From positions 1 to 64,000 of the IMG/VR virus record IMGVR_UViG_3300029915_000731: DNA of 64,000 nt. One strand, given 5' to 3'. The notes below the pieces were generated by a model. That model searched no databases, was not told the DNA's origin, and saw only the letters and a list, made by a program, of their open reading frames with translations. This document shows positions 2,989 to 34,071 of the stretch, one piece after another. This DNA comes from a virus. Positions within the stretch are counted from its first letter, which is position 1. The number at the start of each line of letters is the position of its first letter. Position numbers and translations under genes: made by a program.

Positions 2989-3233
2989 GTGATTCTCCAG
3001 TCTTGATTTGGTTAAAATTTCTCGTTATTCCACACAGCGATAACAGCGCCGATGCCCTGGGAGGAGAATTGAGACTCTCCATCTCTCGCCTTCGTACTCA
3101 ACCTTATCGCATACGTCTGGAACCATAAAAATACCCCCTACTTCTTATTTAATAGTCGGCTCTTCCAACGATCTTGTGTTTCAGCTCCGCCGAACGGTAT
3201 CGGACAATGCGATTAGGAAACACTTGAAAAAGT

Positions 3234-3320
3234 TGGTGCCAGAGACGGGACTCGAACCCGTATGAGTTTAACCTCGGAGGTTTTTGAGACCTCTGCGTAT
3301 ACCAATTCCACCACTCTGGC
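3234..3320 (-). tRNA. trnL: tRNA-Leu(CAA)
   Basis: Anticodon arm GAGGT-CTCAAAA-ACCTC, long variable arm, CCA end. Confidence 0.95.
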
Positions 3321-3326
3321 AAATTT

Positions 3327-3414
3327 TGGTACCCGTGACAGGAGTCGAACCTGCAAGACCCGGAGGTCTATGAGGGCTTAAACCTCATGTGTACGCCAAT
3401 ACCACCACACGGGC
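3327..3414 (-). tRNA. trnL: tRNA-Leu(TAA)
   Basis: TGAGG-TTTAAGC-CCTCA, CCA end. Confidence 0.93.
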
Positions 3415-3424
3415 ACATCTAAAC

Positions 3425-3515
3425 TGGTCGGCGCGGGGAGACTTGAACTCCCAGTTGACCTTGCGGTACGGCACGCCCTGAACGTGCTGTGTCTGCCGAA
3501 TTCCACCACGCGCCG
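3425..3515 (-). tRNA. trnL: tRNA-Leu(CAG)
   Basis: GCACG-TTCAGGG-CGTGC, CCA end. Confidence 0.93.
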
Positions 3516-3527
3516 AAAAATCTAAAA

Positions 3528-3615
3528 TGGTACCGGGTGAGAGACTCGAACTCTCATGAAGCTTGCGCCTCGCTAGCTCCTAAGGCTAGGGTGTCTGCCA
3601 TTCCACCAACCCGGC
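3528..3615 (-). tRNA. trnL: tRNA-Leu(TAG)
   Basis: CTAGC-CTTAGGA-GCTAG, CCA end. Confidence 0.95.
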
Positions 3616-3627
3616 AAATCTAAACTT

Positions 3628-3719
3628 TGGTACCCCTGACAGGACTCGAACCTGCAATGTTTACCGCTTGGGTATCGCGTCTTAAGCGCGACGTGTCTCG
3701 CCAGTTTCACCACAGGGGC
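3628..3719 (-). tRNA. trnL: tRNA-Leu(TAA), second copy
   Basis: TCGCG-CTTAAGA-CGCGA, CCA end. Confidence 0.92.
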
Positions 3720-3731
3720 ACATCTAAACTT

Positions 3732-3822
3732 TGGTCGGCTCGATGAGATTCGAACTCACAATTGTCCTTTCGGAACACATGGACCTCAACCATGCGCGTC
3801 TCGCCAATTTCGCCACAAGCCG
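3732..3822 (-). tRNA. trnL: tRNA-Leu(GAG)
   Basis: CATGG-TTGAGGT-CCATG, CCA end. Confidence 0.92.
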
Positions 3823-3845
3823 ATACTTTACTTCAATACTGAGTG

Positions 3846-4094
3846 TTACCTCTCAACATGCCCCCTCTGAGAAAGCGCCCGGTCGATAAACTGGTCTGCA
3901 ACCTGTTCTCGGTACGCCGGGGACTCAAACAAACTTTTAGTGTCCATGGTGTAGTAGGTATTGTAGCTCTTCTTCCCCACCTTGTCGGATACCGCCACTT
4001 TCAGTATTGGAAAGCAGCCTCCGACTTGGACGGTGACATCGTCTCGCGTCACCTTTACCTTGCCATTCTTTAATACCTTAACACCCTTATCCAT
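3846..4094 (-). CDS. Hypothetical protein inside tRNA operon 1
   Basis: 82-aa ORF co-oriented with the tRNAs. Confidence 0.55.
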   Translation of the reverse strand: MDKGVKVLKNGKVKVTRDDVTVQVGGCFPILKVAVSDKVGKKSYNTYYTMDTKSLFESPAYREQVADQFIDRALSQRGHVER

Positions 4095-4114
4095 TGTTTC
4101 AACCTGTTACCCTC

Positions 4115-4270
4115 TCACAGAATACTCACGCCTCCACGTCCAGCTATATGCTTTATCGTTTGGCCACAGTTTGGACAACACTTACGACTGACTCCTATGA
4201 CTCCTATAGGGGCTAGAAACGCTGCTAGAAGCCCCGAGATAACGAAAATGATAACCACTGTCAAAACCAT
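4115..4270 (-). CDS. Small membrane protein with CPNCG motif (51 aa)
   Basis: GAGGT SD; MVLTVVIIFVISGLLAAFLAPIGVIGVSRKCCPNCGQ...; below ORF-track cutoff. Confidence 0.55.
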   Translation of the reverse strand: MVLTVVIIFVISGLLAAFLAPIGVIGVSRKCCPNCGQTIKHIAGRGGVSIL

Positions 4271-4286
4271 AAATACCTCTCGGAAT

Positions 4287-4351
4287 CGGTGGGGGTGAGG
4301 AAATTGCTTCCCAGTGCTCCGCCTATTTGGGGTTATTCAGCGGACACCCCC
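4287..4351 (-). ncRNA. Short tRNA-like element (acceptor-like stem, one internal arm, T-like arm)
   Basis: GGGGGTG...CACCCCC-ACCG; CCGC/GCGG arm; GGAA-GCAAT-TTCC. Confidence 0.4.
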
Positions 4352-4355
4352 GAAC

Positions 4356-4462
4356 TGGTGGACTGTGGTGGCGTTCGAGCCACGCTATCGCTTCATCTCA
4401 GGACACGGGAAAGTCACCCTAGCACCTGCCTTTACGATGTCTTCACCTAACTTACACAGCCC
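4356..4462 (-). ncRNA. Ala-identity tRNA-like RNA resembling a tmRNA tRNA-like domain
   Basis: GGGCTGT/ACAGTCC-ACCA with G3:U70; T-like arm; long interrupted helix instead of anticodon arm. Confidence 0.6.
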
Positions 4463-4469
4463 AAAACTT

Positions 4470-4556
4470 TGGTCGGCTTGGGGGGACTTGAACCCCCACT
4501 CCCTTGCGAGAACCAGCCCCTCAAGCTGGCGCGTCTGCGAATTTCGCCACAAGCCG
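4470..4556 (-). tRNA. trnL: tRNA-Leu(GAG), second copy
   Basis: CCAGC-TTGAGGG-GCTGG, CCA end. Confidence 0.95.
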
Positions 4557-4587
4557 ATAACTTACATTAACCTAATACTACAAAATC

Positions 4588-4625
4588 TGGTGGGCTGGGA
4601 AGGATTAGTTATACCTCACATCCCC
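4588..4625 (-). pseudogene. 3' fragment of a tRNA-Tyr-like gene
   Basis: ...CCTTCCCAGCCCACCA resembles the 3' end of the neighbouring tRNA-Tyr; no 5' half. Confidence 0.4.
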
Positions 4626-4634
4626 TTACGAAAG

Positions 4635-4722
4635 TGCGCCGTGATGGATTCGAACCACCGATGTTACTCTTAAAGAGGACTGGGTTACGGCCAGTCGCTT
4701 TCGTCCACTCAGCCAACGACGC
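4635..4722 (-). tRNA. trnY: tRNA-Tyr(GTA), atypical (C33, no encoded CCA)
   Basis: ACTGG-CCGTAAC-CCAGT; GGTTCGAATCC T arm; long variable arm. Confidence 0.8.
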
Positions 4723-4735
4723 ATATCTAAAAATT

Positions 4736-4826
4736 TGGTGGGTAGGGAGGGATTCGAACCCCCAGCGTGCCCAAAGGGCATCCAGATTTACAGTCTGGCG
4801 CGGCCAACCGTATCCACGTCCTACCC
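4736..4826 (-). tRNA. trnY: tRNA-Tyr(GTA)
   Basis: CCAGA-CTGTAAA-TCTGG, CCA end. Confidence 0.93.
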
Positions 4827-4860
4827 ACAATACAAAAGCCGCTCGGTTGAGAGCGGCTTC
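4827..4860 (-). terminator. Attenuator terminator of tRNA operon 1
   Basis: AAGCCGCTC-TCAACC-GAGCGGCTT-TTGTATTGT immediately before the first tRNA. Confidence 0.85.
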
Positions 4861-4883
4861 GTTTGAACTCTGGTTTGACTTGA

Positions 4884-4976
4884 CTATTTGTCAGTCCACC
4901 CGTTCAACACGGAGCCGTCGCTAAGCAGGTAATACAAGCTTAGTGATAAAACCGAGTTGTTAACGAGGTTGGTCAT
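4884..4976 (-). CDS. Leu/Tyr leader peptide MTNLVNNSVLSLSLYYLLSDGSVLNGWTDK
   Basis: AAGGG SD; contains all six Leu and both Tyr codons; 3' part overlaps the antiterminator. Confidence 0.85.
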   Translation of the reverse strand: MTNLVNNSVLSLSLYYLLSDGSVLNGWTDK

Positions 4977-4999
4977 TGTCATCCCTTTCGCTGTGATAA

Positions 5000-5032
5000 G
5001 CGTCTAGGGGTCGCTTAGCGTCCCCTAGACGC
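5000..5032 (-). promoter_or_regulatory. Strong 5'-UTR hairpin upstream of leader peptide 1
   Basis: 11-bp perfect stem GCGTCTAGGGG/CCCCTAGACGC. Confidence 0.6.
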
Positions 5033-5071
5033 AATACTCTATATACTCTATATCGGTACCACTTCATATAT

Positions 5072-5101
5072 ATAATACGCAGGAAACCGGAAAACTGTCA
5101 A
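5072..5101 (-). promoter_or_regulatory. sigma70-type promoter of tRNA operon 1
   Basis: TTGACA-N18-TATTAT. Confidence 0.8.
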
Positions 5102-5286
5102 TTCTTTTCTGAAGAAAAATGAAAGTGGCCGTTTGGAGCACTGTCGAGGTGGCCTTCCCCCGGTTTACACGAGCCTCTGCGTCTTTCGTCTCGCCGTTGT
5201 TACCCTGCCTCGTTGCACCTTCCCAACATCAGGGGTACGTACGGTGCTTCAGACATCACTATACTAATACCATAAAACGTGAAACT

Positions 5287-5538
5287 TTAGCAATACCCAT
5301 CTGGGTCAGGCTCGTACTGCTTGTGGTGCTTGTGGTACCATCGGGTCGTTTTAATCCGCTTGTGAAATTCTGAACAAGTCTCATGAACATGCTCAGGGAA
5401 TGCTGAGCCAAAACGACGCCAAGCAACCTCTCTGGCCTCTTCATCAATCGCATCTACAATCCAACTATACGCGACGATTTCCCAGTAGGCAACATCCTCT
5501 ATCCGCTGGTCTTGCCCTAAGTTTTTCAAATTTCCCAT
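5287..5538 (-). CDS. Hypothetical protein
   Basis: 83-aa ORF with SD-like GGGG. Confidence 0.55.
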   Translation of the reverse strand: MGNLKNLGQDQRIEDVAYWEIVAYSWIVDAIDEEAREVAWRRFGSAFPEHVHETCSEFHKRIKTTRWYHKHHKQYEPDPDGYC

Positions 5539-5577
5539 ACGTTTTCCCCACCTAGTATAGGGGGCTGTAGTTGATTT

Positions 5578-6534
5578 TTACGCTCGTGTCCCTTCACTCA
5601 AATTTAACATCGGGTATTTCTGTACCAACTGCTCGAATGCCTTCTTTACATGGTGACCATATTGGTCGGCGACGATCATTACTGAGTTCATACGCGGGAT
5701 GAGAATACAGGACTCAGCGGTTACATCATGGGCGGCGAACACCTCGGCCATAATCTTCCGGGCGAACAGTACCTCGTTAAGGATGCCCCCACCTGACTTA
5801 GAAAAAAATGGATAGGGGATACCTTCCGCTTGAAAGCCTGTAGTGCCGTCCAACACATTAGCATAAGTAAAGTGATTAGCCATTTGCGGATTACTGCGGG
5901 GCTCCCAACTAATATAGAAGACCTTCAGGTTGGGAAGCGTTTTAAGATACTGGTCGGCTCCAATTCCCATCATGGAGATGTTGCGGCTATCCGCAAACGC
6001 GGGAGTTTGTTGTAGGGGTGTAACCCGGAAGCTAATCTGTGGGGTGAACTGGGAGATAATCTTCAGAGAACGCATCGTGCTGAGAACCATGTTGTACTGC
6101 TTCTCTTCATCGGTAGCGGCAATCTTCACCATCTTCGCCTTGGGTTCAAATGGATTGAGCTTTGCGGTCTTCGGCCACGATTCCTGTAACCGCTGGAGTT
6201 CCTTCTCGGCATCCTTGGTCTGGTAGGCCATCCCAGTGTACATCTGAAGGTTCAGCAGCACCTGAGTGAATAGGTTGTAATCAAGGAAGCTCTGTAGCTC
6301 ACGGAGGATGGCGAGTCGGTCATACCCTGTCGGAACGGATGTGACCTCTGGGCCGTATTTGACCCAGCACTCCGTCAACATTCTGTCGAGGATGATGTTC
6401 CAGAAGTCCGTCCGGGTGAACTCTAACTCCCCGATGTACTTCAGGAAGACCGCCTTCAGGGTCTCTTCAGTTTCGAAGGTGGAGTCAATAAGTTTTGAAA
6501 ATTCACGAGCGACGGTTCTGTAAGTTTCTTGCAT
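5578..6534 (-). CDS. Hypothetical protein, possibly degenerate family-A polymerase fold
   Basis: 318-aa ORF; weak ordered resemblance to PolA blocks without catalytic Asp residues. Confidence 0.6.
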   Translation of the reverse strand: MQETYRTVAREFSKLIDSTFETEETLKAVFLKYIGELEFTRTDFWNIILDRMLTECWVKYGPEVTSVPTGYDRLAILRELQSFLDYNLFTQVLLNLQMYTGMAYQTKDAEKELQRLQESWPKTAKLNPFEPKAKMVKIAATDEEKQYNMVLSTMRSLKIISQFTPQISFRVTPLQQTPAFADSRNISMMGIGADQYLKTLPNLKVFYISWEPRSNPQMANHFTYANVLDGTTGFQAEGIPYPFFSKSGGGILNEVLFARKIMAEVFAAHDVTAESCILIPRMNSVMIVADQYGHHVKKAFEQLVQKYPMLNLSEGTRA

Positions 6535-6676
6535 GGCGTTGGTTCTTTACCTTTCGGGACTAGCTGGTCCTTATCACCATACGGATGCGCCTCCAGAGTT
6601 CTTCATCTAGGAGGCTGGGAACAACGGCGATGTACTTCTTACTTCCCCCTCAATTACTCGAAAGGTGAGATGGACT

Positions 6677-8395
6677 TCATTCTTCATAGTTCTCGTAAGC
6701 TTCAACCACTCGCTGTACCAAAGCATGGCGAACCACGTCAGTCTTATCGAAGTCTTGAAAGTGAATCCCCTCAATGTCGTGTAGCACTTTGCGTGCCTGA
6801 ATCAACCCGCTCATCTGACTAATGGGAAGGTCGATTTGAGTGATGTCTCCGGTGATGACCACTTTCGACTCCATACCCATGCGGGTGAGTAACATCTTCA
6901 TCTGCTGAGTGGTGGTATTCTGCGCTTCATCAAGAATGATGAAAGCGTTGTTGAGGGTGTTATGAGTCAAGATAAAATCATCGGTGACATACAAACTGTC
7001 CCCTGCCGCTACCTTAATACACTGAGTTTCCTCATCTCCTATAAATTCAATGGACTTAATAGATCGAACCGGACGCCCCCTTTTTGTCGTGTGATAGGCT
7101 TCAGACTTTCGACTAAGCCTAAACGGCTCTAGCCCATCCGGGAGTCTTATATCGAGACAAAACCAATTGCGCCGATGATACACGGGTCGGGTAGAAGAAC
7201 CCCCCGGTCTTCCTGATGGCTTTCTTTCTCTCCATGTAACTGTGCCACCTAAAGAGCGAACTAAGAAAATCACGCCATCTTTAAGTTGTTCTGAAGTAGT
7301 GGTATACCCGATACGGCTGGTTCTATTATTTTGTGAAACTACACCACCGTCTGTATCTAACAACCCTTGCAATACCCCAAGTCTAACATTCAAACTATTG
7401 TACAGATATTCCTCGGGGATAAACTTGGTGTAAGAATAGGTGCCAAGTGTGTAGTCAATATCCGAACCCGTGCAGGGTTTAATCACAACTTTCATCCAAT
7501 CCAAGTAGGGAGCAATCAGTGCTACTGAATCTGCTGTAGTAAAAGAGGGGGTGGTCGAACCTGTAATACACCCGTCTCCCAATAGAGCCCCTAACAAATA
7601 GGGATCAAGTGGAACATGTCGAAACCCAAAATTAACGGGGGCGACTAAAGGCAGTTCATACCGATATTGATGGGCACTCCGTAGACTATCAACCATATCT
7701 TTAGTCTGAATAACGCGATACGGCTTATCTCGACGTTTATCACTCGCAGTCAGCACAGACCATAAATGTTCATCAGAAGCTAATGTGGAAGCCCCATCAG
7801 TGGTTGTTACTCTGTAGACAGGCTTAACACCTTGTGGGTACACCCCTAAAACTGTTGTTGGACTACCATCCGACCCAACCACTGCATCCCCTACTTCAAG
7901 GCTCCCCATTAACTTCCAGCCAGTTGGTGTTAAAACACTACTTCGGAGGGGCTGCGCTCTACCCCTCATGAAAGCCAACGGGGCAACCTCGATAATTCCC
8001 TTCTCCAAATACTGGTCAACCTTCTCTGGGGGCATCAGGTCGTAGAGCGCGTCGTACAGAGGGCGCAGGTAGGGGTCAACCTTATCCTGCATAGAGCCAG
8101 GGAGGAAGCCCAAACGTTCTCCTGCTTCTACGGCGGGGCGGACAAGAACAAGGCGATTACCCTTCTTTGCCAGCCAAGTGACTGCTTTGGCGACGGCGAG
8201 GAGGGTCTTGCCTGTACCTGCGGGCCCAATGCCGAAGACCATATCGTTGGCATCAATCGCATCGAGGTAGTTCTTTTGGTTGACACTCTTCGGCTTAACC
8301 TTCAGAAAGCCCAGCTTCGCAGATGGGTGATAAGGGGCATCAACTTCAACTTGCGATGCTTCGGGAGTTACCTTTTTCTTATACTTGTTACCCAT
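6677..8395 (-). CDS. phoH: PhoH-family ATPase with intein
   Basis: [29 protein letters not shown]|[21 protein letters not shown]. Confidence 0.95.
6959..7957 (-). mobile_element. Class-3 intein (333 aa) with LAGLIDADG homing endonuclease
   Basis: Starts AQPL, ends ILTHN followed by T; EHLW, TQCI, LTHN; LLGALLGDG and LQGLLDTDG. Confidence 0.9.
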
Positions 8396-10812: not shown

Positions 10813-11823
10813 TTAAAGTTCACATAATTCTTTAACAAATGAGAGCAGTTCCGGTTCGTCAACCGGGCAGAGCGTCTTCAAAATCTCTCGGGGGTCAGTG
10901 GCTTCGATGTCGTCCACCTGCTCTTCCAAACCCGTGAGGAACTGCTTCAACTCCTCCGACTTCGCTACGCTGTCCATGCCCTTGTCTGCGGTCTGGAAGG
11001 CTACCTGAAGTGGAGTAACCGGGATTTCCTTTTCCTTGTACCTAATACCGTCTTCCGCGAACGAGATAATTGCACAAGCTACCGGACGGTCAGTTTGGTC
11101 GGTATCGAAGGCCGCCCGGGCGAGGGAGCCTAGATGGATGTGGGTGGGGCGGCCTACAGTGACCGTCTCCTTGCGGGAGTGGTCGTGACCCCAGAGCAGG
11201 AAATCATAGTCGGACTCGGCAACCTCGTTGTACCCGATAATGCGCTCTCCAAAAAGGGAGCCCTCATTGCCGGGTTGTCCATAGGCGTGAACAATACCCA
11301 CTCGGTGGGTAACCCCCGCTGGGCGGGGTGCCGCCGCCATAATGGACTCTAGCACACCCTCGTGGGCATAGGGGAATGTCTCAACCAGCACCTGTACCGT
11401 ACCTGAGTTGTTGGAGAAGATGACTGGGTTGTAGGTTAAATCACGGTAAACTCCCGCCGCAATCAACAACCCTAGGGGCTGTTTGGTAAGGGAATCTAGT
11501 CGGTCTGCTGACAAATCGTGGTTGCCCACCGCACCCCAAAGACATCCATAAGGGAACTCCCTAAACTCCTTAGCTGCTTCCACGAGCAATCCAAGAGTAT
11601 TTGACGCGGCTCTGGGGTTTTTAGAATGAAAAACATCCCCACCGCACAAGCCCACTGCTTTAATGCGTTGAGTTAACTCTCTAACAAACCGCACCTTATC
11701 AAGAATCGCTTTCTGGTAATCATCCCCCCGCCTTCCGGGTGGAACCGCTGACATATGCAAATCGGTAATGAAAGTAAATGTACAGCGCGGGTGCGGGAGT
11801 TTTACAACCGTGATAGTGGACAT
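10813..11823 (-). CDS. SbcD/Mre11-like nuclease
   Basis: TDLH, GGDVFH, GNHD, GHDH, GSLAR. Confidence 0.85.
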   Translation of the reverse strand: MSTITVVKLPHPRCTFTFITDLHMSAVPPGRRGDDYQKAILDKVRFVRELTQRIKAVGLCGGDVFHSKNPRAASNTLGLLVEAAKEFREFPYGCLWGAVGNHDLSADRLDSLTKQPLGLLIAAGVYRDLTYNPVIFSNNSGTVQVLVETFPYAHEGVLESIMAAAPRPAGVTHRVGIVHAYGQPGNEGSLFGERIIGYNEVAESDYDFLLWGHDHSRKETVTVGRPTHIHLGSLARAAFDTDQTDRPVACAIISFAEDGIRYKEKEIPVTPLQVAFQTADKGMDSVAKSEELKQFLTGLEEQVDDIEATDPREILKTLCPVDEPELLSFVKELCEL

Positions 11824-12974: not shown

Positions 12975-13270
12975 TAGTTCTCCTGTAACTGCTGATACTC
13001 TCTCATCAAAGCATCACCTTTGGTGAGTTGTTCTTCAATGGACTGAAGCCAGTCAGCCAGTTGAGTCTGTAGCTCATTGGCCAGTTTTTGTAGCTCAGCT
13101 TCAGTCATGGTCTCTGCCTCAATGCCATACTGATGAAGATTCTCATAGGCTTGAGTCAGCTTCTGCTTCTCAATACCTGCATCGTGGATAATCTGGTCGC
13201 GGCCATTCGCCAAGGTTTTCACCCTCGCAGTGGCTTCCTTCAAACGTTCTTGAATCTGTTTAGCTTCCAC
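12974..13270 (-). CDS. Coiled-coil protein
   Basis: Heptad-rich 98 aa directly after the SbcC N-half. Confidence 0.65.
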   Translation of the reverse strand: MEAKQIQERLKEATARVKTLANGRDQIIHDAGIEKQKLTQAYENLHQYGIEAETMTEAELQKLANELQTQLADWLQSIEEQLTKGDALMREYQQLQEN

Positions 13271-13280
13271 CGATACCCCC

Positions 13281-14570
13281 CTAACCTACTACTCTCCCAT
13301 GATTGGATAGTTGAAATCCACATTTAGGGCAGAGGATTAGTGTTGCCTGTCGCTTCTGCTCTTCATCCAAAATGGTAAGCTTATTCAATTCCTCTCGGGC
13401 AGCTCCCAGTTCCACCTCATTATCAGAGAGTTCTTTGGCCTTACCCGCCACCCGACTACGGTAAACAATCGCCGCACTCAAGTACCTAATACTGATTTGC
13501 GCGTCGGTTGCCTTTTTGGTATCGCGATCAAGTACACTTAAAATGCAATCAAGCCGCTTTTCATACTCCTCTGAAGAGGTCTTCCGGTTACTCAAGATAA
13601 ACAGTAGCCCATTGACACTCTTCTGCTTTCTGAATGCGATGATTAACTCTGACCAGTCAGCGGCGATGCCGTCAAAATGGGACTCCAACCCCTCTAACTT
13701 TGACTCCTTCCGTTGCAGCCAAGTATGGTACAAAAGCGATTTCTCCGCCTGATTGAGGTACTGTATTTGCTGGTACAGGCTCTGACCCTCGGTTAGTTCC
13801 GGGAGTACACAGGACTTGAGAATGCGAACGATGGGAATAAGCTTTCGGCGAAGACTCAATACGGTGAGGAGTGCCCCCAGCTTACCCTCCACCTCACGGG
13901 CGCTAGCCTCTAACGTATGTAGCGTCCCTGCCAACTCATCTGCTCTCTGGGAAAGAGGGAGCAACTTGGCTTTGCGCTCCTCAGCATCTCTAATCTCTAT
14001 GGAAAGAGTCTTAGCCTCGCTGTTCTTACTAGCAACCCGGGAGTTGGCTTCTTTCTTTCCCGCGTCTAACTTCTCCGTACTGGAGAACGCTCCGATGATG
14101 GCATTCAATTCAGTCGGTTTATAGCGGTCGGAGTCAATCAGGAACTGAGCCTTGTTCTGCTCTGCGAATATGGGATCAATTGAGTAGTCCCCAATCTCCA
14201 CTTCACCAAACTTTAATGCGGCTACCTCATCGGGAATTTTTCGATTGAGGCTGGTATATGGCTTGCCATGGTCGATGACATAAGTGGTGCTCCCCCCCTT
14301 TTTACGGGAGGCTTCAACACAATGACCATCAACATCAACTGAAAGCTCCATAGGTTCCGGCTGATTGTTTCTGATGTACTCCTCAGGAAGGTCATTACGC
14401 AGTAAGCCCCTCAACGCCCGGAAGGTTGCAGACTTACCCTTATTAGAGGGGCCGACGATGACGGTTAATTTGTCGATAGAAATTTCAAACTCACCCCATG
14501 GCTGAAAATTCTTACCTTTGAAGAGCATCGGAAATCTCCTTAAAACACGGGGGTGCATACCGAAGTACAC
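13281..14570 (-). CDS. SbcC/Rad50-like ATPase, N-terminal half
   Basis: KNFQ, GPSNKGKS Walker A, Q-loop, coiled coil ending in CPKCG. Confidence 0.8.
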   Translation of the reverse strand: MYFGMHPRVLRRFPMLFKGKNFQPWGEFEISIDKLTVIVGPSNKGKSATFRALRGLLRNDLPEEYIRNNQPEPMELSVDVDGHCVEASRKKGGSTTYVIDHGKPYTSLNRKIPDEVAALKFGEVEIGDYSIDPIFAEQNKAQFLIDSDRYKPTELNAIIGAFSSTEKLDAGKKEANSRVASKNSEAKTLSIEIRDAEERKAKLLPLSQRADELAGTLHTLEASAREVEGKLGALLTVLSLRRKLIPIVRILKSCVLPELTEGQSLYQQIQYLNQAEKSLLYHTWLQRKESKLEGLESHFDGIAADWSELIIAFRKQKSVNGLLFILSNRKTSSEEYEKRLDCILSVLDRDTKKATDAQISIRYLSAAIVYRSRVAGKAKELSDNEVELGAAREELNKLTILDEEQKRQATLILCPKCGFQLSNHGRVVG

Positions 14571-16824: not shown

Positions 16825-17556
16825 TTAATACCCGTTTTCGTCTACAACCACGATGGAAAATCCAGCTTCGGCGACTCGGGCTTTCTCGTGCTCAAGGGCA
16901 TCCTGCTTGATAACGAGCAGCCAAGCGATGAATCTCCCACCTTCGTACTTTGCACGATAGCCACATGCCTTTATCTTGTCGTTGAGACCTCTATCACCGA
17001 CCGCCTTTACGTAGATGCTGGGTGTCTGAGCACTTTTAACGACCTCATTGATGTCATAGTTGCTGAGGACACGGAACATAGTCATAACATCAAACACAGC
17101 CCGGTGGGGAAATGGGTTCAAGAAACCGTGCTCCACAGCAAGGTAAGGCAGATGTCGGCTTCTTATCCCCTTGGGGAGGGGGATGTCGGCAGAGGTGTCA
17201 ATCCAGACCTTATCCTCTGCGAACTCGATGTTGTGCTTCTTGATCCACGCTTTTAGGAACCCGTGGTCGAAGGGGGCGTTATGGGCACAGATATAGTCGG
17301 CCTGTTGATACATGGCTAGAACTTGCTTGAGGGCTCGTTCTGAATCGTGTCCATACTTATCACAAACCAATGTATTGAGCCCGGTGATTTCAGCAGCCAC
17401 CTCGCCAAAAGGGGTGTCCCCCGTCTTCACCAAAAATCCCATAAGTTTGACGGGGGCTTGCAGGTCGGTATCCCAGAGGATAGCTCCTACTTCAGTAACT
17501 ACATCAACGGCGGATTCGAGGCCAGTAGTCTCGAAGTCAATTCCCAATAGCAACAA
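16825..17556 (-). CDS. DnaQ-like DEDDh 3'-5' exonuclease
   Basis: DFETTG, AHNAPFD, HRAVFD. Confidence 0.9.
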   Translation of the reverse strand: MLLLGIDFETTGLESAVDVVTEVGAILWDTDLQAPVKLMGFLVKTGDTPFGEVAAEITGLNTLVCDKYGHDSERALKQVLAMYQQADYICAHNAPFDHGFLKAWIKKHNIEFAEDKVWIDTSADIPLPKGIRSRHLPYLAVEHGFLNPFPHRAVFDVMTMFRVLSNYDINEVVKSAQTPSIYVKAVGDRGLNDKIKACGYRAKYEGGRFIAWLLVIKQDALEHEKARVAEAGFSIVVVDENGY

Positions 17557-29472: not shown

Positions 29473-29579
29473 TTTCAATCAGACCCCGAGACTTTCCGGG
29501 GATGTAACGCCTGTGCGTAATCTCACTGTCCCCGATAGTTTCTTTCAATCGGACCCCCGATACCTTCCGGGGATGTAAC
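29473..29579 (-). CRISPR. Two-repeat mini CRISPR array
   Basis: Repeats 29473-29508 and 29543-29579 (GTTACATCCCCGGAARGTMTCGGGGTCYGATTGAAA), 34-nt spacer. Confidence 0.75.
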
Positions 29580-29594
29580 GCCTGTGCGTAATCT

Positions 29595-29676: not shown

Positions 29677-30351
29677 TTAGTACAGTAAGTCTAGTTCACC
29701 CTTCAATATTCTCTCTGGGTACTGAACCATCTTACCATTGCGATGGTCTTTTGCGAAGCCCTTAATGAAGTTGTAGGTGCGAATCTTATCGCCCCGGCCA
29801 CCTCCACCTAACTGACTCTGCCGCTCAATACCGTAAGTGGTCTCTGCTTCCTTATCCTTCGCCAGCTTCACTTTCTGAGCTAGGATGGCAAGTGCGTCTT
29901 CCTTGTTACGGTGTTGGTCTCGACCATTGATAAAGACCGACAATCCAGTGGGCTTGTGTACGGCTCTCACCGCACTGTCGGTGGTGTTCTGATGCTGCCC
30001 ACCTTTACCGTGCCCCCGCTGAGTCTTGACTTCAATCTCAGAATCGGGAAGTTTGTCCTGATACTTCTCAGGAGGTAATGGCAATACAGCTACCGAGACC
30101 ACTGATGTGTGCCGCCGTCCAGCCCTGTCATTATCAGGGCACCGCTGGACAACGTGCTTTCCAGCTTCCCGGCGAAATAGTTCCCATACGTCTTGCCCAG
30201 AGAACTTCATTACTGCGTGTCCAAAACTACTGGTGAGTATCTCGGTCTTGAGTTTCTTGCGGAGCCCATACTGTGCGTAAGCACTGAGCATGTCGTCCAC
30301 GAAACCCTTCGAGTCATCCCCACCTTCACCGAAGTGAATTTCGAGAATCAA
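29677..30351 (-). CDS. Class-1 peptide chain release factor homolog lacking domain 1; true start likely 30417/30421 via stop bypass
   Basis: ILEIHFGEGG, EAGKHVVQRCP, GRRHTS, GKGGQHQNTTDSAVR, KIRTYNF. Confidence 0.9.
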   Translation of the reverse strand: MILEIHFGEGGDDSKGFVDDMLSAYAQYGLRKKLKTEILTSSFGHAVMKFSGQDVWELFRREAGKHVVQRCPDNDRAGRRHTSVVSVAVLPLPPEKYQDKLPDSEIEVKTQRGHGKGGQHQNTTDSAVRAVHKPTGLSVFINGRDQHRNKEDALAILAQKVKLAKDKEAETTYGIERQSQLGGGGRGDKIRTYNFIKGFAKDHRNGKMVQYPERILKGELDLLY

Positions 30352-31254: not shown

Positions 31255-31291
31255 TTTCAATTGAACCCCGAGACCTTCCGGGGATAACAAC
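31255..31291 (-). CRISPR. Solitary CRISPR-like repeat, variant 2
   Basis: GTTGTTATCCCCGGAAGGTCTCGGGGTTCAATTGAAA. Confidence 0.65.
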
Positions 31292-31545: not shown

Positions 31546-31603
31546 TGAGGGGGTAAATTTATAAAGCGGAAAGTCTACGTCAGACCCCCATCCGCTGAAT
31601 TAC

Positions 31604-31988
31604 TGTGCCAAACCGATAAGCGGAGTTCTGTTCCCCTCGCGGGGTGACAATCATTCGTCTACGAATACTGTTACCAGTACCCTCTAGCCCTCAACCCGCC
31701 GATTCATAACGGTACGAGCAGTACCTGTCGGCCTATTTGAAGTTGCATCGCGTAGAGATTGCCCGTTTCACCCGGCGTCCGGTTTCCCGGCTGACCGACT
31801 CGTCTCTGTTGCTCTAATCGTCGCAAGGGGGATTGGTTGGGAATTTACGGCTGTTACACCGCTGTCACGTTCGACATGAGAAACGCTTCCAACCACACCT
31901 TACGCTAGGCCGTTAGCCTATACGCTGCTCTTTGATGCTCCGACTTTCCTCCCCCACTTGCGTGGCGGCGATTGTCTGGTTTGGCACA
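31604..31988 (-). ncRNA. rnpB: RNase P RNA (bacterial type A)
   Basis: P1 TGTGCCAAACC/GGTTTGGCACA; GAGGAAAGTCGGAGC pairing with ACAGAACTCCGCTTA (P4); GGGCAATCTCTAC, TGCAAC, GGTAAC. Confidence 0.95.
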
Positions 31989-32568: not shown

Positions 32569-32605
32569 TTTCAATTGAACCCCGAGACCTTCCGGGGATA
32601 ACAAC
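32569..32605 (-). CRISPR. Solitary CRISPR-like repeat, variant 2
   Basis: Identical to 31255-31291 including short flanks. Confidence 0.65.
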
Positions 32606-33035: not shown

Positions 33036-33152
33036 TTATCCGATTCCTCCCGAGGACATGGTACCCTCATCTCCGCCTTCGCAATCAGCGGCCACGCCCG
33101 CGGCGACTGCTGCGGCGCTGACGGCTACGATGCTGGCGATGGTGTTGGTCAT
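33036..33152 (-). CDS. Val/Ala/Gly/Asp/Cys/Glu leader peptide MTNTIASIVAVSAAAVAAGVAADCEGGDEGTMSSGGIG
   Basis: GAGGA SD; lies between promoter and terminator; codons match downstream tRNAs. Confidence 0.85.
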   Translation of the reverse strand: MTNTIASIVAVSAAAVAAGVAADCEGGDEGTMSSGGIG

Positions 33153-33170
33153 GTTCTTCCTCACACTTTT

Positions 33171-33200
33171 ATAATACCCAGTATTTCTGGTTTTTGTCAA
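33171..33200 (-). promoter_or_regulatory. sigma70-type promoter of tRNA operon 2
   Basis: TTGACA-N18-TATTAT. Confidence 0.8.
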
Positions 33201-33243
33201 TTCATTTCTGAATTTATTTTTAAACCCCATCATCTTTTCAATT

Positions 33244-33434
33244 TTTCAATCAGACCCCGAGACTTTCCGGGGATGTAACTAAATCTTGGGGTCGGGTAGA
33301 CCGTTGGTTTCAATTTTCAATGTTTCAATCGAACCCCGAGACTTCCCGGGGATGTAACGTGTTTTTGGGCGACCACGATACGCAGGCCCCTTTCAATCTT
33401 TCAATCGGACCCCGATACCTTCCGGGGATGTAAC
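33244..33434 (-). CRISPR. Three-repeat mini CRISPR array
   Basis: 36-nt repeats at 33244-33279, 33323-33358, 33399-33434; 43- and 40-nt spacers. Confidence 0.8.
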
Positions 33435-33441
33435 CTGTAGC

Positions 33442-34071
33442 CTACACAATACCCAGTTCAGCGGGAGATGTCAACTCAGTTCTGAACGTTGCTTTCAATT
33501 GAGAAACCCCACGATAAATGTCGGATTTGACGGCTGTGAGACTCTTGCCCATCATCTCCGCCAGTTCTTTTCCTGTATACCCCTCAATCTGGCTCAGAGC
33601 CACCACCGTGCGATACTTGGGTGGCAGCTTGAGCAGGGCACGGTGGATATCCTCGCGTGCCGGGAAGGACTCTTGCTGTCGGTCTGGGACGCTAAGCTGA
33701 ATCCTACCCCCGGTGAATGATTCCCTTCCCTCTTCATAAGGAATCTGCTCATCAAGTGAGATGTCGAAGACCCGCTTCCGGTACTTGCGAAGGTGTTGGA
33801 GTCCCTCGTTTACTGCGATGCGGTGAGCCCACGTAACAAAACTGGACTCGAAATTGAATCGCTTCAAGTTTAGGTACACCTTCAGCCACGTGTTGGCCGC
33901 AATGTCACAGGCTAGGTCGGGCTGCTCTACCACTCCCCTAGCTGCCTTGAACACACGGTCATCATAGCGTCGGTAGAGTTTACCGAACGCCTCCTCATCA
34001 CCCTTCTTTGCACGCCGAATGAGACTCAACACTTCCTTGTCGTCAAACATTCGTACCTTCTTCTTAACCAT
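33442..34071 (-). CDS. ECF-type sigma-70 factor
   Basis: GDEEAFGKLY, F.TW.HRIAVN (region 2), LPPKYR...EGYTGKELAEMMG (region 4). Confidence 0.9.
   Translation of the reverse strand: MVKKKVRMFDDKEVLSLIRRAKKGDEEAFGKLYRRYDDRVFKAARGVVEQPDLACDIAANTWLKVYLNLKRFNFESSFVTWAHRIAVNEGLQHLRKYRKRVFDISLDEQIPYEEGRESFTGGRIQLSVPDRQQESFPAREDIHRALLKLPPKYRTVVALSQIEGYTGKELAEMMGKSLTAVKSDIYRGVSQLKATFRTELTSPAELGIV

Follow-up and report, generated by a model that had tools for sequence, protein, structure and literature searches.

The stretch of DNA analysed here, hereafter the window, comprises 64,000 nucleotides (nt; positions 1 to 64,000) of the IMG/VR virus record IMGVR_UViG_3300029915_000731 and carries on its minus strand an operon of nine transfer RNA (tRNA) genes, two for Tyr and seven for Leu, which is preceded by a promoter, a short open reading frame (ORF) and an intrinsic terminator. 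A preliminary description of this DNA, made from the sequence alone, proposed that the region ahead of the tRNA genes (4827-5101) is a codon-sensing attenuator of the operon. In this paper we examine this leader and its relatives in huge phages by RNA folding, codon statistics and comparison of loci, and weigh the ways in which the arrangement can be explained. The minus strand was read throughout, and statistics on small ORFs and stop codons were taken over the 100-kb contig. The features of the locus are as follows.

5072-5101, minus: sigma-70-type promoter, TTGACA at 5101-5096, an 18-nt spacer and TATTAT at 5077-5072 (11 of 12 matches)
5000-5032, minus: hairpin in the 5' untranslated region (UTR), a perfect 11-bp stem with an 11-nt loop, from sequence and fold
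4983-4988, minus: Shine-Dalgarno-like AAAGGG, 6 nt 5' of the ATG at 4976
4884-4976, minus: leader ORF, 30 codons from the ATG at 4976, plus TAG (4886-4884)
4952-4967, minus: region 1, the 5' strand of helix 1:2 (anti-antiterminator), codons 4-9
4923-4949, minus: regulatory codons 10-18, Leu-Ser-Leu-Ser-Leu-Tyr-Tyr-Leu-Leu, with TTA, CTA, TTG, TAT, TAC, CTG and CTT as the Leu and Tyr codons
4918-4946, minus: inner hairpin, a CUAAGC / GCUUAG stem with the two Tyr codons at its tip
4898-4917, minus: region 2, codons 20-27, able to pair with region 1 or region 3
4854-4873, minus: region 3, the 3' strand of the antiterminator, whose last 7 nt (4860-4854) belong to the terminator 5' arm
4827-4860, minus: intrinsic terminator, a 10-bp stem (4860-4835, six G-C pairs) with a 6-nt loop and a T-rich tail to 4827
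4826-4736 and 4722-4634, minus: two tRNA-Tyr(gta)
4556-4470 and 3822-3732, minus: tRNA-Leu(gag)
3719-3628 and 3414-3327, minus: tRNA-Leu(taa)
3615-3528, minus: tRNA-Leu(tag)
3515-3425, minus: tRNA-Leu(cag)
3320-3234, minus: tRNA-Leu(caa)

The promoter, Shine-Dalgarno sequence, ORF of 30 amino acids (aa) and terminator hairpin lie where the preliminary description had placed them, and its count of two tRNA-Tyr and seven tRNA-Leu genes is correct. Within 3000-6600, the promoter-like site that scores best is the one at 5101-5072. The T-rich tail of the terminator ends at 4827 and the first tRNA-Tyr gene starts at 4826, directly adjoining it, so that there is no room for a second promoter between the terminator and the tRNA. 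The leader has an alternative start at 4982, an ATG in the same frame, and the hairpin in the 5' UTR may act as a 5'-end stabiliser or processing element.

All six Leu codons and both Tyr codons are used in the leader, as had been described: CTC (codon 4), TTA (10), CTA (12), TTG (14), CTG (17), CTT (18) and again TTG (24) for Leu, and TAT (15) and TAC (16) for Tyr, with seven of these nine codons within codons 10-18. Leu and Tyr together make up 9 of 29 leader codons against a background of 12% (P = 0.005), and seven random Leu draws would include all six codon types with P = 0.036. Among the 412 ORFs of 20-45 aa that begin with ATG in the contig, a single one holds six Leu and two Tyr codons; presumably it is the leader itself, whose own codons fit this description. 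The tRNAs of the array can read every one of the nine Leu/Tyr codons. Five Ser codons (TCG, TCA, AGC, AGC and TCC) are also present. Recoding of TAG was considered, as the leader ends in this codon and relatives carry tRNAs with a cta anticodon, and was rejected: TAG ends 16 of 61 long ORFs of the contig and is therefore an ordinary stop there.

Relatives were found by means of a 318-aa protein encoded just upstream of the leader (5578-6534), whose homologues were aligned (alignment A1) and number more than 200 on contigs of huge phages, the longest of several hundred kb. Eighty-nine loci were fetched, 31 from IMG/VR and 58 from metagenomes. A search of IMG/VR with the sigma-factor protein of the window as probe yielded no relatives, and DNA comparison with GenBank phages gave matches at the level of tRNAs only and no near relative. 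Gene order is kept in the relatives, where the homologue of the 318-aa protein is followed by the leader, the terminator, tRNA-Tyr and the Leu array, with a Pro/Met/Phe array a few kb further on. A search of related phages for short ORFs and terminators upstream of tRNA arrays had been suggested as a check on the attenuator, and a homologous leader ORF with a terminator was present at 29 of the 29 distinct Tyr/Leu array heads among the fetched loci. In three of these heads a small ORF of about 70 aa is inserted between the terminator and the first tRNA-Tyr (L018, about 11480-11815; L042, about 17250-17457; L082, about 13040-13366), and ORFs resembling HNH or homing endonucleases lie between the tRNA genes of several arrays.

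Upstream of the leaders of the relatives there is a -10 box of the TATTAT/TAGTAT type, and most of them have GGA/GAG-type motifs 6-10 nt 5' of the leader ATG. Several have a different hairpin at the place that corresponds to the 5' UTR hairpin of the window, and others have almost no 5' UTR. In the sub-clade of L013, L017, L021 and L030, about 8-10 nt separate the -10 box from the leader ATG, and this spacing suggests that the messenger RNAs from which these leader ORFs are translated are leaderless.

Folding was done with ViennaRNA, and the nascent state was mimicked by withholding the 3' arm of the terminator; terminators of the family were delimited by an explicit stem search, and 26 leaders were extracted. 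The minimum-energy fold of the full-length leader of the window consists of the terminator and helix 1:2 (4967-4952 with 4912-4899, codons 22-26), which encloses the hairpin presenting the Tyr codons. When the terminator 3' arm is withheld, 4917-4898 pairs with 4873-4854 to form the antiterminator, which sequesters 6 of the 10 nt of the terminator arm, and it is under this condition that the pairing of 4902-4922 with 4852-4868, noticed in the preliminary description, is predicted. The calculated energies for this leader are -23.6 kcal/mol for helix 1:2, -28.0 kcal/mol for regions 2 and 3 and -16.8 kcal/mol for the terminator (3:4), and those of the whole leader are -49.3 kcal/mol in the terminated and -45.1 kcal/mol in the antiterminated conformer.

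The three mutually exclusive helices (1:2, the 2:3 antiterminator and the 3:4 terminator) recur across the family. Each of the 26 leaders has a terminator with a U-rich tail and a stem whose energy is between -12.5 and -21 kcal/mol, and the distance from the stop codon to the terminator arm, 23 nt in the window, is 18-27 nt in all of them. Folded together, regions 2 and 3 reach -25 to -40 kcal/mol in the 26 leaders, with z between -3.0 and -6.9 when region 2 is shuffled for comparison. In 21 of the 26, removal of the terminator 3' arm lets the 5' arm pair with the final 42 nt of the ORF. In alignment A2, 66% of cells are paired for the antiterminator 2:3 as compared with 34-46% when the helix is slid, and 65% as compared with 37-52% for helix 1:2; for each helix the covariation score was reached by 0 of 500 shuffles. 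With a simulated ribosome footprint, the antiterminator is kept for A-site positions at codons 1-16 and lost from codon 17 onwards, in the window and in most relatives. A stall at the Leu/Tyr codons is thus predicted to give readthrough and smooth translation to give termination, and this sign fits negative feedback.

We consider it likely that the leader is a ribosome-mediated (leader-peptide) transcription attenuator which gates the phage tRNA-Tyr/tRNA-Leu operon. The trp/his/leu-type layout that had been claimed for it is borne out, as the ORF, antiterminator, helix 1:2 and terminator are all present and are kept in relatives. From this arrangement we infer translation in vivo, stalling, the efficiency of termination and a physiological trigger. 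In the proposed mechanism, a host-type RNA polymerase would start at the 5101-5072 promoter and transcribe the 30-codon ORF, whose codons 10-18 would probe each of the Leu codon families as well as both Tyr codons. If these are read fast, the ribosome would reach region 2 (4917-4898), the terminator (4860-4835) would form, and transcription would stop 8 nt before the first tRNA. If a charged isoacceptor is scarce, the ribosome would stall at a Leu or Tyr codon and cover region 1, leaving region 2 free to pair with region 3 (4873-4854) and to capture the 5' arm of the terminator, so that the polymerase would enter the nine tRNA genes. The new tRNAs would then relieve the stall, which would amount to an isoacceptor-resolved negative feedback on decoding capacity. 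The trigger could be a defence nuclease, host shut-off, a mismatch in codon usage, starvation or ordinary demand; to name an anticodon nuclease in particular is speculation.

The codons of the leaders were compared with the anticodons of the arrays. CTA, CTG, TTG, CTT/CTC and TAT/TAC occur in 26 of 26 extracted leaders, in an order and at positions that vary by lineage, and the anticodons in complete arrays are tag, cag, caa, gag and gta, matching these codon types; the probability that six Leu codons drawn at random include all four Leu classes is 0.18. Four arrays with Leu(taa) were checked, those of the window, L008, L032 and L082, and each has TTA in its leader. For complete arrays only, the association of TTA with Leu(taa) has a Fisher P of 0.07, and with L032 and L082 added (4/3/0/12) a hypergeometric P computed by hand is about 0.009, uncorrected for kinship. 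The earlier suggestion that synonymous codons sample isoacceptors is supported by these comparisons, every leader holding one codon type per Leu anticodon of the arrays, and concordance between codons and anticodons, which had been proposed as a further check, extends from the 26 leaders to the diagonal of a class-by-class matrix of the other arrays.

One of these other arrays lies in the window itself and encodes, in order, Val, Gly, Ala, Gly, Cys, Ala, Asp, Ala, Val, Glu, Glu and Gly tRNAs (32984-28886, minus). It is preceded by the following element.

33036-33200, minus: leader 2, with a promoter (33200-33171), an ORF (33152-33036) and a terminator

The promoter of leader 2 is near-identical to that at 5101-5072. 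Its ORF has 25 of 37 codons for Val, Ala, Gly, Asp, Cys or Glu, exactly the amino acids of its array, and none for Leu or Tyr (P = 4e-5). The leader that precedes the Pro/Met/Phe arrays of relatives is conserved and rich in Met, Pro and Phe. Further kinds occur in two complete relatives, G001 and G002, which are of 332 and 463 kb and have 49 and 69 tRNA matches. The leader of an array of four Ser tRNAs and Leu(taa) contains all six Ser codons along with one TTA, a Trp/His/Arg/Asn/Gln/Cys/Lys array is preceded by a leader in which those residues are frequent, and an Ile/Thr/Gln array by one rich in Thr, Gln and Ile. When every upstream small ORF was scored against each amino-acid set, the diagonal medians were 2.1, 2.2 and 3.2, and the off-diagonal medians 0.8 or less. 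On codon composition, at least five further array classes bear putative leaders that are matched to their own tRNAs. Downstream of the Pro-class leaders, for example those of L010 (15645-15843) and L025 (20099-20273), the RNA has alternative G/C-rich pairings and is structured over about 100-170 nt, with no clear T-tract, and the Pro/Met/Phe class may terminate or be processed differently. In G001 and G002, a Gln/Lys array includes two to three tRNAs with a cta anticodon (amber suppressors, 'Pyl' in ARAGORN; located at about 2203-2490 of L092 and about 1936-2260 of L095, reverse complement), and no leader was found for this array in the two genomes.

A cultured member of the same broad clade is the jumbo phage Tunturi 5 of Tunturiibacter (PP885688.1, 309 kb), which has an acidobacterial host and encodes a protein 39% identical to the 318-aa protein. 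Its array of Leu, Cys, Leu, Leu, Tyr, Leu, Ser, Ser and Ser, which differs from that of the window in that Ser and Cys tRNAs stand in one array with Leu and Tyr, is headed by a homologue of the leader of the window. This homologue shares the CTTAGCGACGG motif, has many Leu, Cys, Ser and Tyr residues, and is followed by a terminator that adjoins the first tRNA. Beyond this array, the tRNA arrays of Tunturi 5 likewise have leaders that match their tRNAs. A Trp/Asp/Met/Lys/Val/Arg/Glu array in the same genome is preceded by gp308 (L098 21274-21423, which is PP885688.1 251573-251722), a hypothetical protein of matching composition that looks like a leader peptide. The Tunturi 5 leaders are either unannotated or, as with gp308, labelled hypothetical protein, and the paper on the Tunturi phages reports 43 tRNA genes and does not mention their regulation (PMC11924767). 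Among the arrays of this phage there are also a tRNA nucleotidyltransferase (gp279) and an RtcB-like tRNA ligase (gp296). With Tunturi 5 and Tunturiibacter psychrotolerans there is a cultured phage-host pair of matching architecture, and the idea of attenuation is therefore directly testable.

Several observations weigh against attenuation by isoacceptor-specific stalling. The pairing structure was taken from one member of the family and the relatives are not independent, so that the covariation in alignment A2 is supportive and not decisive. A ribosome-free nascent transcript at equilibrium also favours the antiterminator over helix 1:2 in most leaders, and the state of an untranslated leader thus depends on folding kinetics. 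The ORF of the window extends five codons past region 2, and a ribosome on the stop codon would free the 5' half of that region. Each isoacceptor-specific codon occurs once or twice per leader, fewer times than in his or leu leaders, which leaves the sensitivity of such a sensor unproven. Lastly, the five Ser codons of the leader have no Ser tRNA to go with them, as the preliminary description had observed for the operon and as holds for the entire 100-kb contig. These orphan codons are probably a heritage from an ancestral unit in which the long-arm tRNAs (Leu, Tyr and Ser) were united, to judge from the single Leu/Cys/Tyr/Ser array of Tunturi 5 and the separate Ser array with its Ser-rich leader in a complete relative.

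The low number of each specific codon, and the Ser codons that lack cognate tRNAs in the array and so suggest an inexact match, would also suit a generic attenuator which senses overall translation speed or amino-acid starvation and in which the spread of synonymous codons is incidental; a lead ribosome slowed anywhere before codon 17 would favour the antiterminator in the same manner. We regard this as unlikely, because one codon type per array anticodon is retained in all 26 leaders despite the shifted codon order (with the chance expectation of 0.18 given above), TTA goes with Leu(taa) in each of the four checked arrays, and the single Leu codon of the Ser leader is TTA, in keeping with the Leu(taa) of its array. 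A generic sensor, moreover, would have no need of the distinct matched leaders that distinct arrays bear.

Whether the ORF is read at all was approached through the first 23 codons of the leader of the window and its three closest relatives (L002, L003 and L032), whose alignment is gap-free. None of the seven Leu/Tyr positions is replaced in these four leaders, and the four of these positions that vary change synonymously only, including changes from TTA to CTG or CTC, whereas all ten variable positions elsewhere alter the amino acid. Selection thus keeps an in-frame Leu or Tyr codon at these places and not the sequence of the peptide. This pattern, with two-base changes between synonymous codons next to codons that vary freely, is hard to reconcile with an untranslated RNA element that acts in the processing or stability of the tRNA precursor or, like a T-box, binds a factor or a tRNA. 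Such an element would account for the strong nucleotide conservation (CUUAGC is nearly invariant across the leader family) and the stable structure (z -5.6), and helix 2:3 does dictate the 3' half of the peptide. It would not account for an ATG that is invariant in an alignment of 23 sequences, for a stop codon held at 18-27 nt from the terminator arm, or for an amino-acid composition that in six array types follows the set of tRNAs. A cmscan of 3000-5400 against Rfam at E up to 1 returned tRNAs only, with no T-box (RF00230) and no amino-acid leader family; the leader is absent from Leu_leader, His_leader, Trp_leader, Thr_leader and the other Rfam leader families, and a scan of the whole window at the gathering score gave just tRNAs and an RNase P RNA. 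We find an element acting as RNA alone highly improbable. Least credible of all is that a small peptide gene with its own terminator stands beside the tRNA genes by chance, the tRNAs coming unregulated from leaky readthrough or upstream transcription: short hydrophobic ORFs are common, and promoter, ORF and terminator make an ordinary gene layout, but the peptide is unconserved outside its Leu/Tyr positions, such codons mark one of the 412 small ORFs (presumably the leader), the terminator tail adjoins the tRNA, the alternative helices overlap the terminator arm family-wide, and the pattern recurs with other amino acids at other arrays.

Leader-peptide attenuators are well known from enterobacteria, where they control the leu (leuL, with four Leu codons), trp and his operons as well as, in multivalent form, thr and ilvGMEDA. 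Like the leaders of trp, his and leu, the phage leader has a short promoter-proximal ORF whose regulatory codons lie in region 1, exclusive helices 1:2, 2:3 and 3:4, and an intrinsic terminator ahead of the genes that it would regulate, and like those of thr and ilv it is multivalent, sampling more than one amino acid. It differs from the enterobacterial leaders in that it would regulate tRNAs, so that what is sensed, charged tRNA at the A site, is made by the operon itself; in that it has one codon for each isoacceptor, drawn from the synonymous families, where they have a run of one codon; and in that it is encoded by a phage and has no sequence or Rfam similarity to them. Control of a gene of the translation apparatus by a leader peptide has a counterpart in the pheST attenuator, where the pheM leader peptide senses charged tRNA-Phe and controls Phe-tRNA synthetase; there, however, the target is a synthetase protein, a single amino acid is sensed and the system is cellular and not viral. 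T-box riboswitches bind uncharged tRNA directly through a specifier codon and need no translation. The phage leader resembles them as a switch between terminator and antiterminator that would respond to the state of a specific tRNA, and departs from them in having an ORF under coding constraint and no T-box match.

The nearest published inducible tRNA array is the trn operon of Anabaena sp. PCC 7120 (PMC8421152), which is controlled by a protein repressor, TrcR (PMC10272220), on direct repeats over the -10 box and transcription start (PMC8421152, PMC10272220); neither paper uses the words leader or attenuation. Like the phage operon as we interpret it, the Anabaena array is supernumerary, silent by default and induced upon impaired translation. 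It differs in being cellular or plasmid-borne, in being one array and in having no codon matching. In agreement with the preliminary description, which knew of no leader-peptide attenuation of tRNA genes, we found no published account of it in a literature search that reached few subscription journals. The novelty is that tRNA genes are the targets of the proposed attenuator, nine tRNAs in place of the biosynthesis enzymes or the synthetase to which classical attenuation applies.

Phage tRNA genes are usually viewed as a fixed supplement for codon usage or as spares against tRNA-cleaving defences, and to our knowledge almost nothing is known of how their expression is set. If the leader is indeed a ribosome-mediated attenuator, the phage would measure decoding speed per isoacceptor and make tRNAs on demand, textbook attenuation of the trp/his/leu kind would extend to RNA genes and to viruses, and this would be the first leader-peptide attenuation to sense the RNA product of its own operon. 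The leaders would also be a label, readable from sequence, of the tRNAs that share one regulatory unit, and could act as natural reporters of tRNA depletion in infection. With less confidence than for the Tyr/Leu operon, we lean towards a wider reading in which huge phages of soil Acidobacteriota have a genome-wide, isoacceptor-resolved monitor of decoding, every array having its own feedback loop with a leader that lists the codons of its tRNAs. Exactly the tRNAs that are limiting would then be replaced, whether the limitation came from codon-usage mismatch, host shut-off, or anticodon-nuclease and other tRNA-depletion defences.

Other features of the window lie near the two operons. The gap in the tRNA-Leu array (4470-3822) contains two small ORFs and tRNA-like RNAs. 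The latter, at 4270-4460 (minus) between the tRNA-Leu(gag) that ends at 4470 and the small ORFs, are two structures with acceptor-type stems and encoded ACCA/ACCG ends, and were called by neither ARAGORN nor Rfam. A gene for a PhoH-like ATPase, apparently interrupted by an intein, lies at 6677-8395 (minus). Within the second array are a full-length bacterial class A RNase P RNA (31601-31987, minus; 182 bits against a gathering score of 100) and a release-factor-like protein with a GGQ motif (29677-30351, minus), and directly upstream of leader 2 lies the sigma-factor-like gene (33442-34071, minus). A repeat of about 36 nt, a CCCCGG / CTCGGGG hairpin ending in ATTGAAA, is found on the minus strand after the sigma-factor gene and among the tRNA genes, at 33240-33430, 32569-32605, 31255-31291 and 29500-29590.

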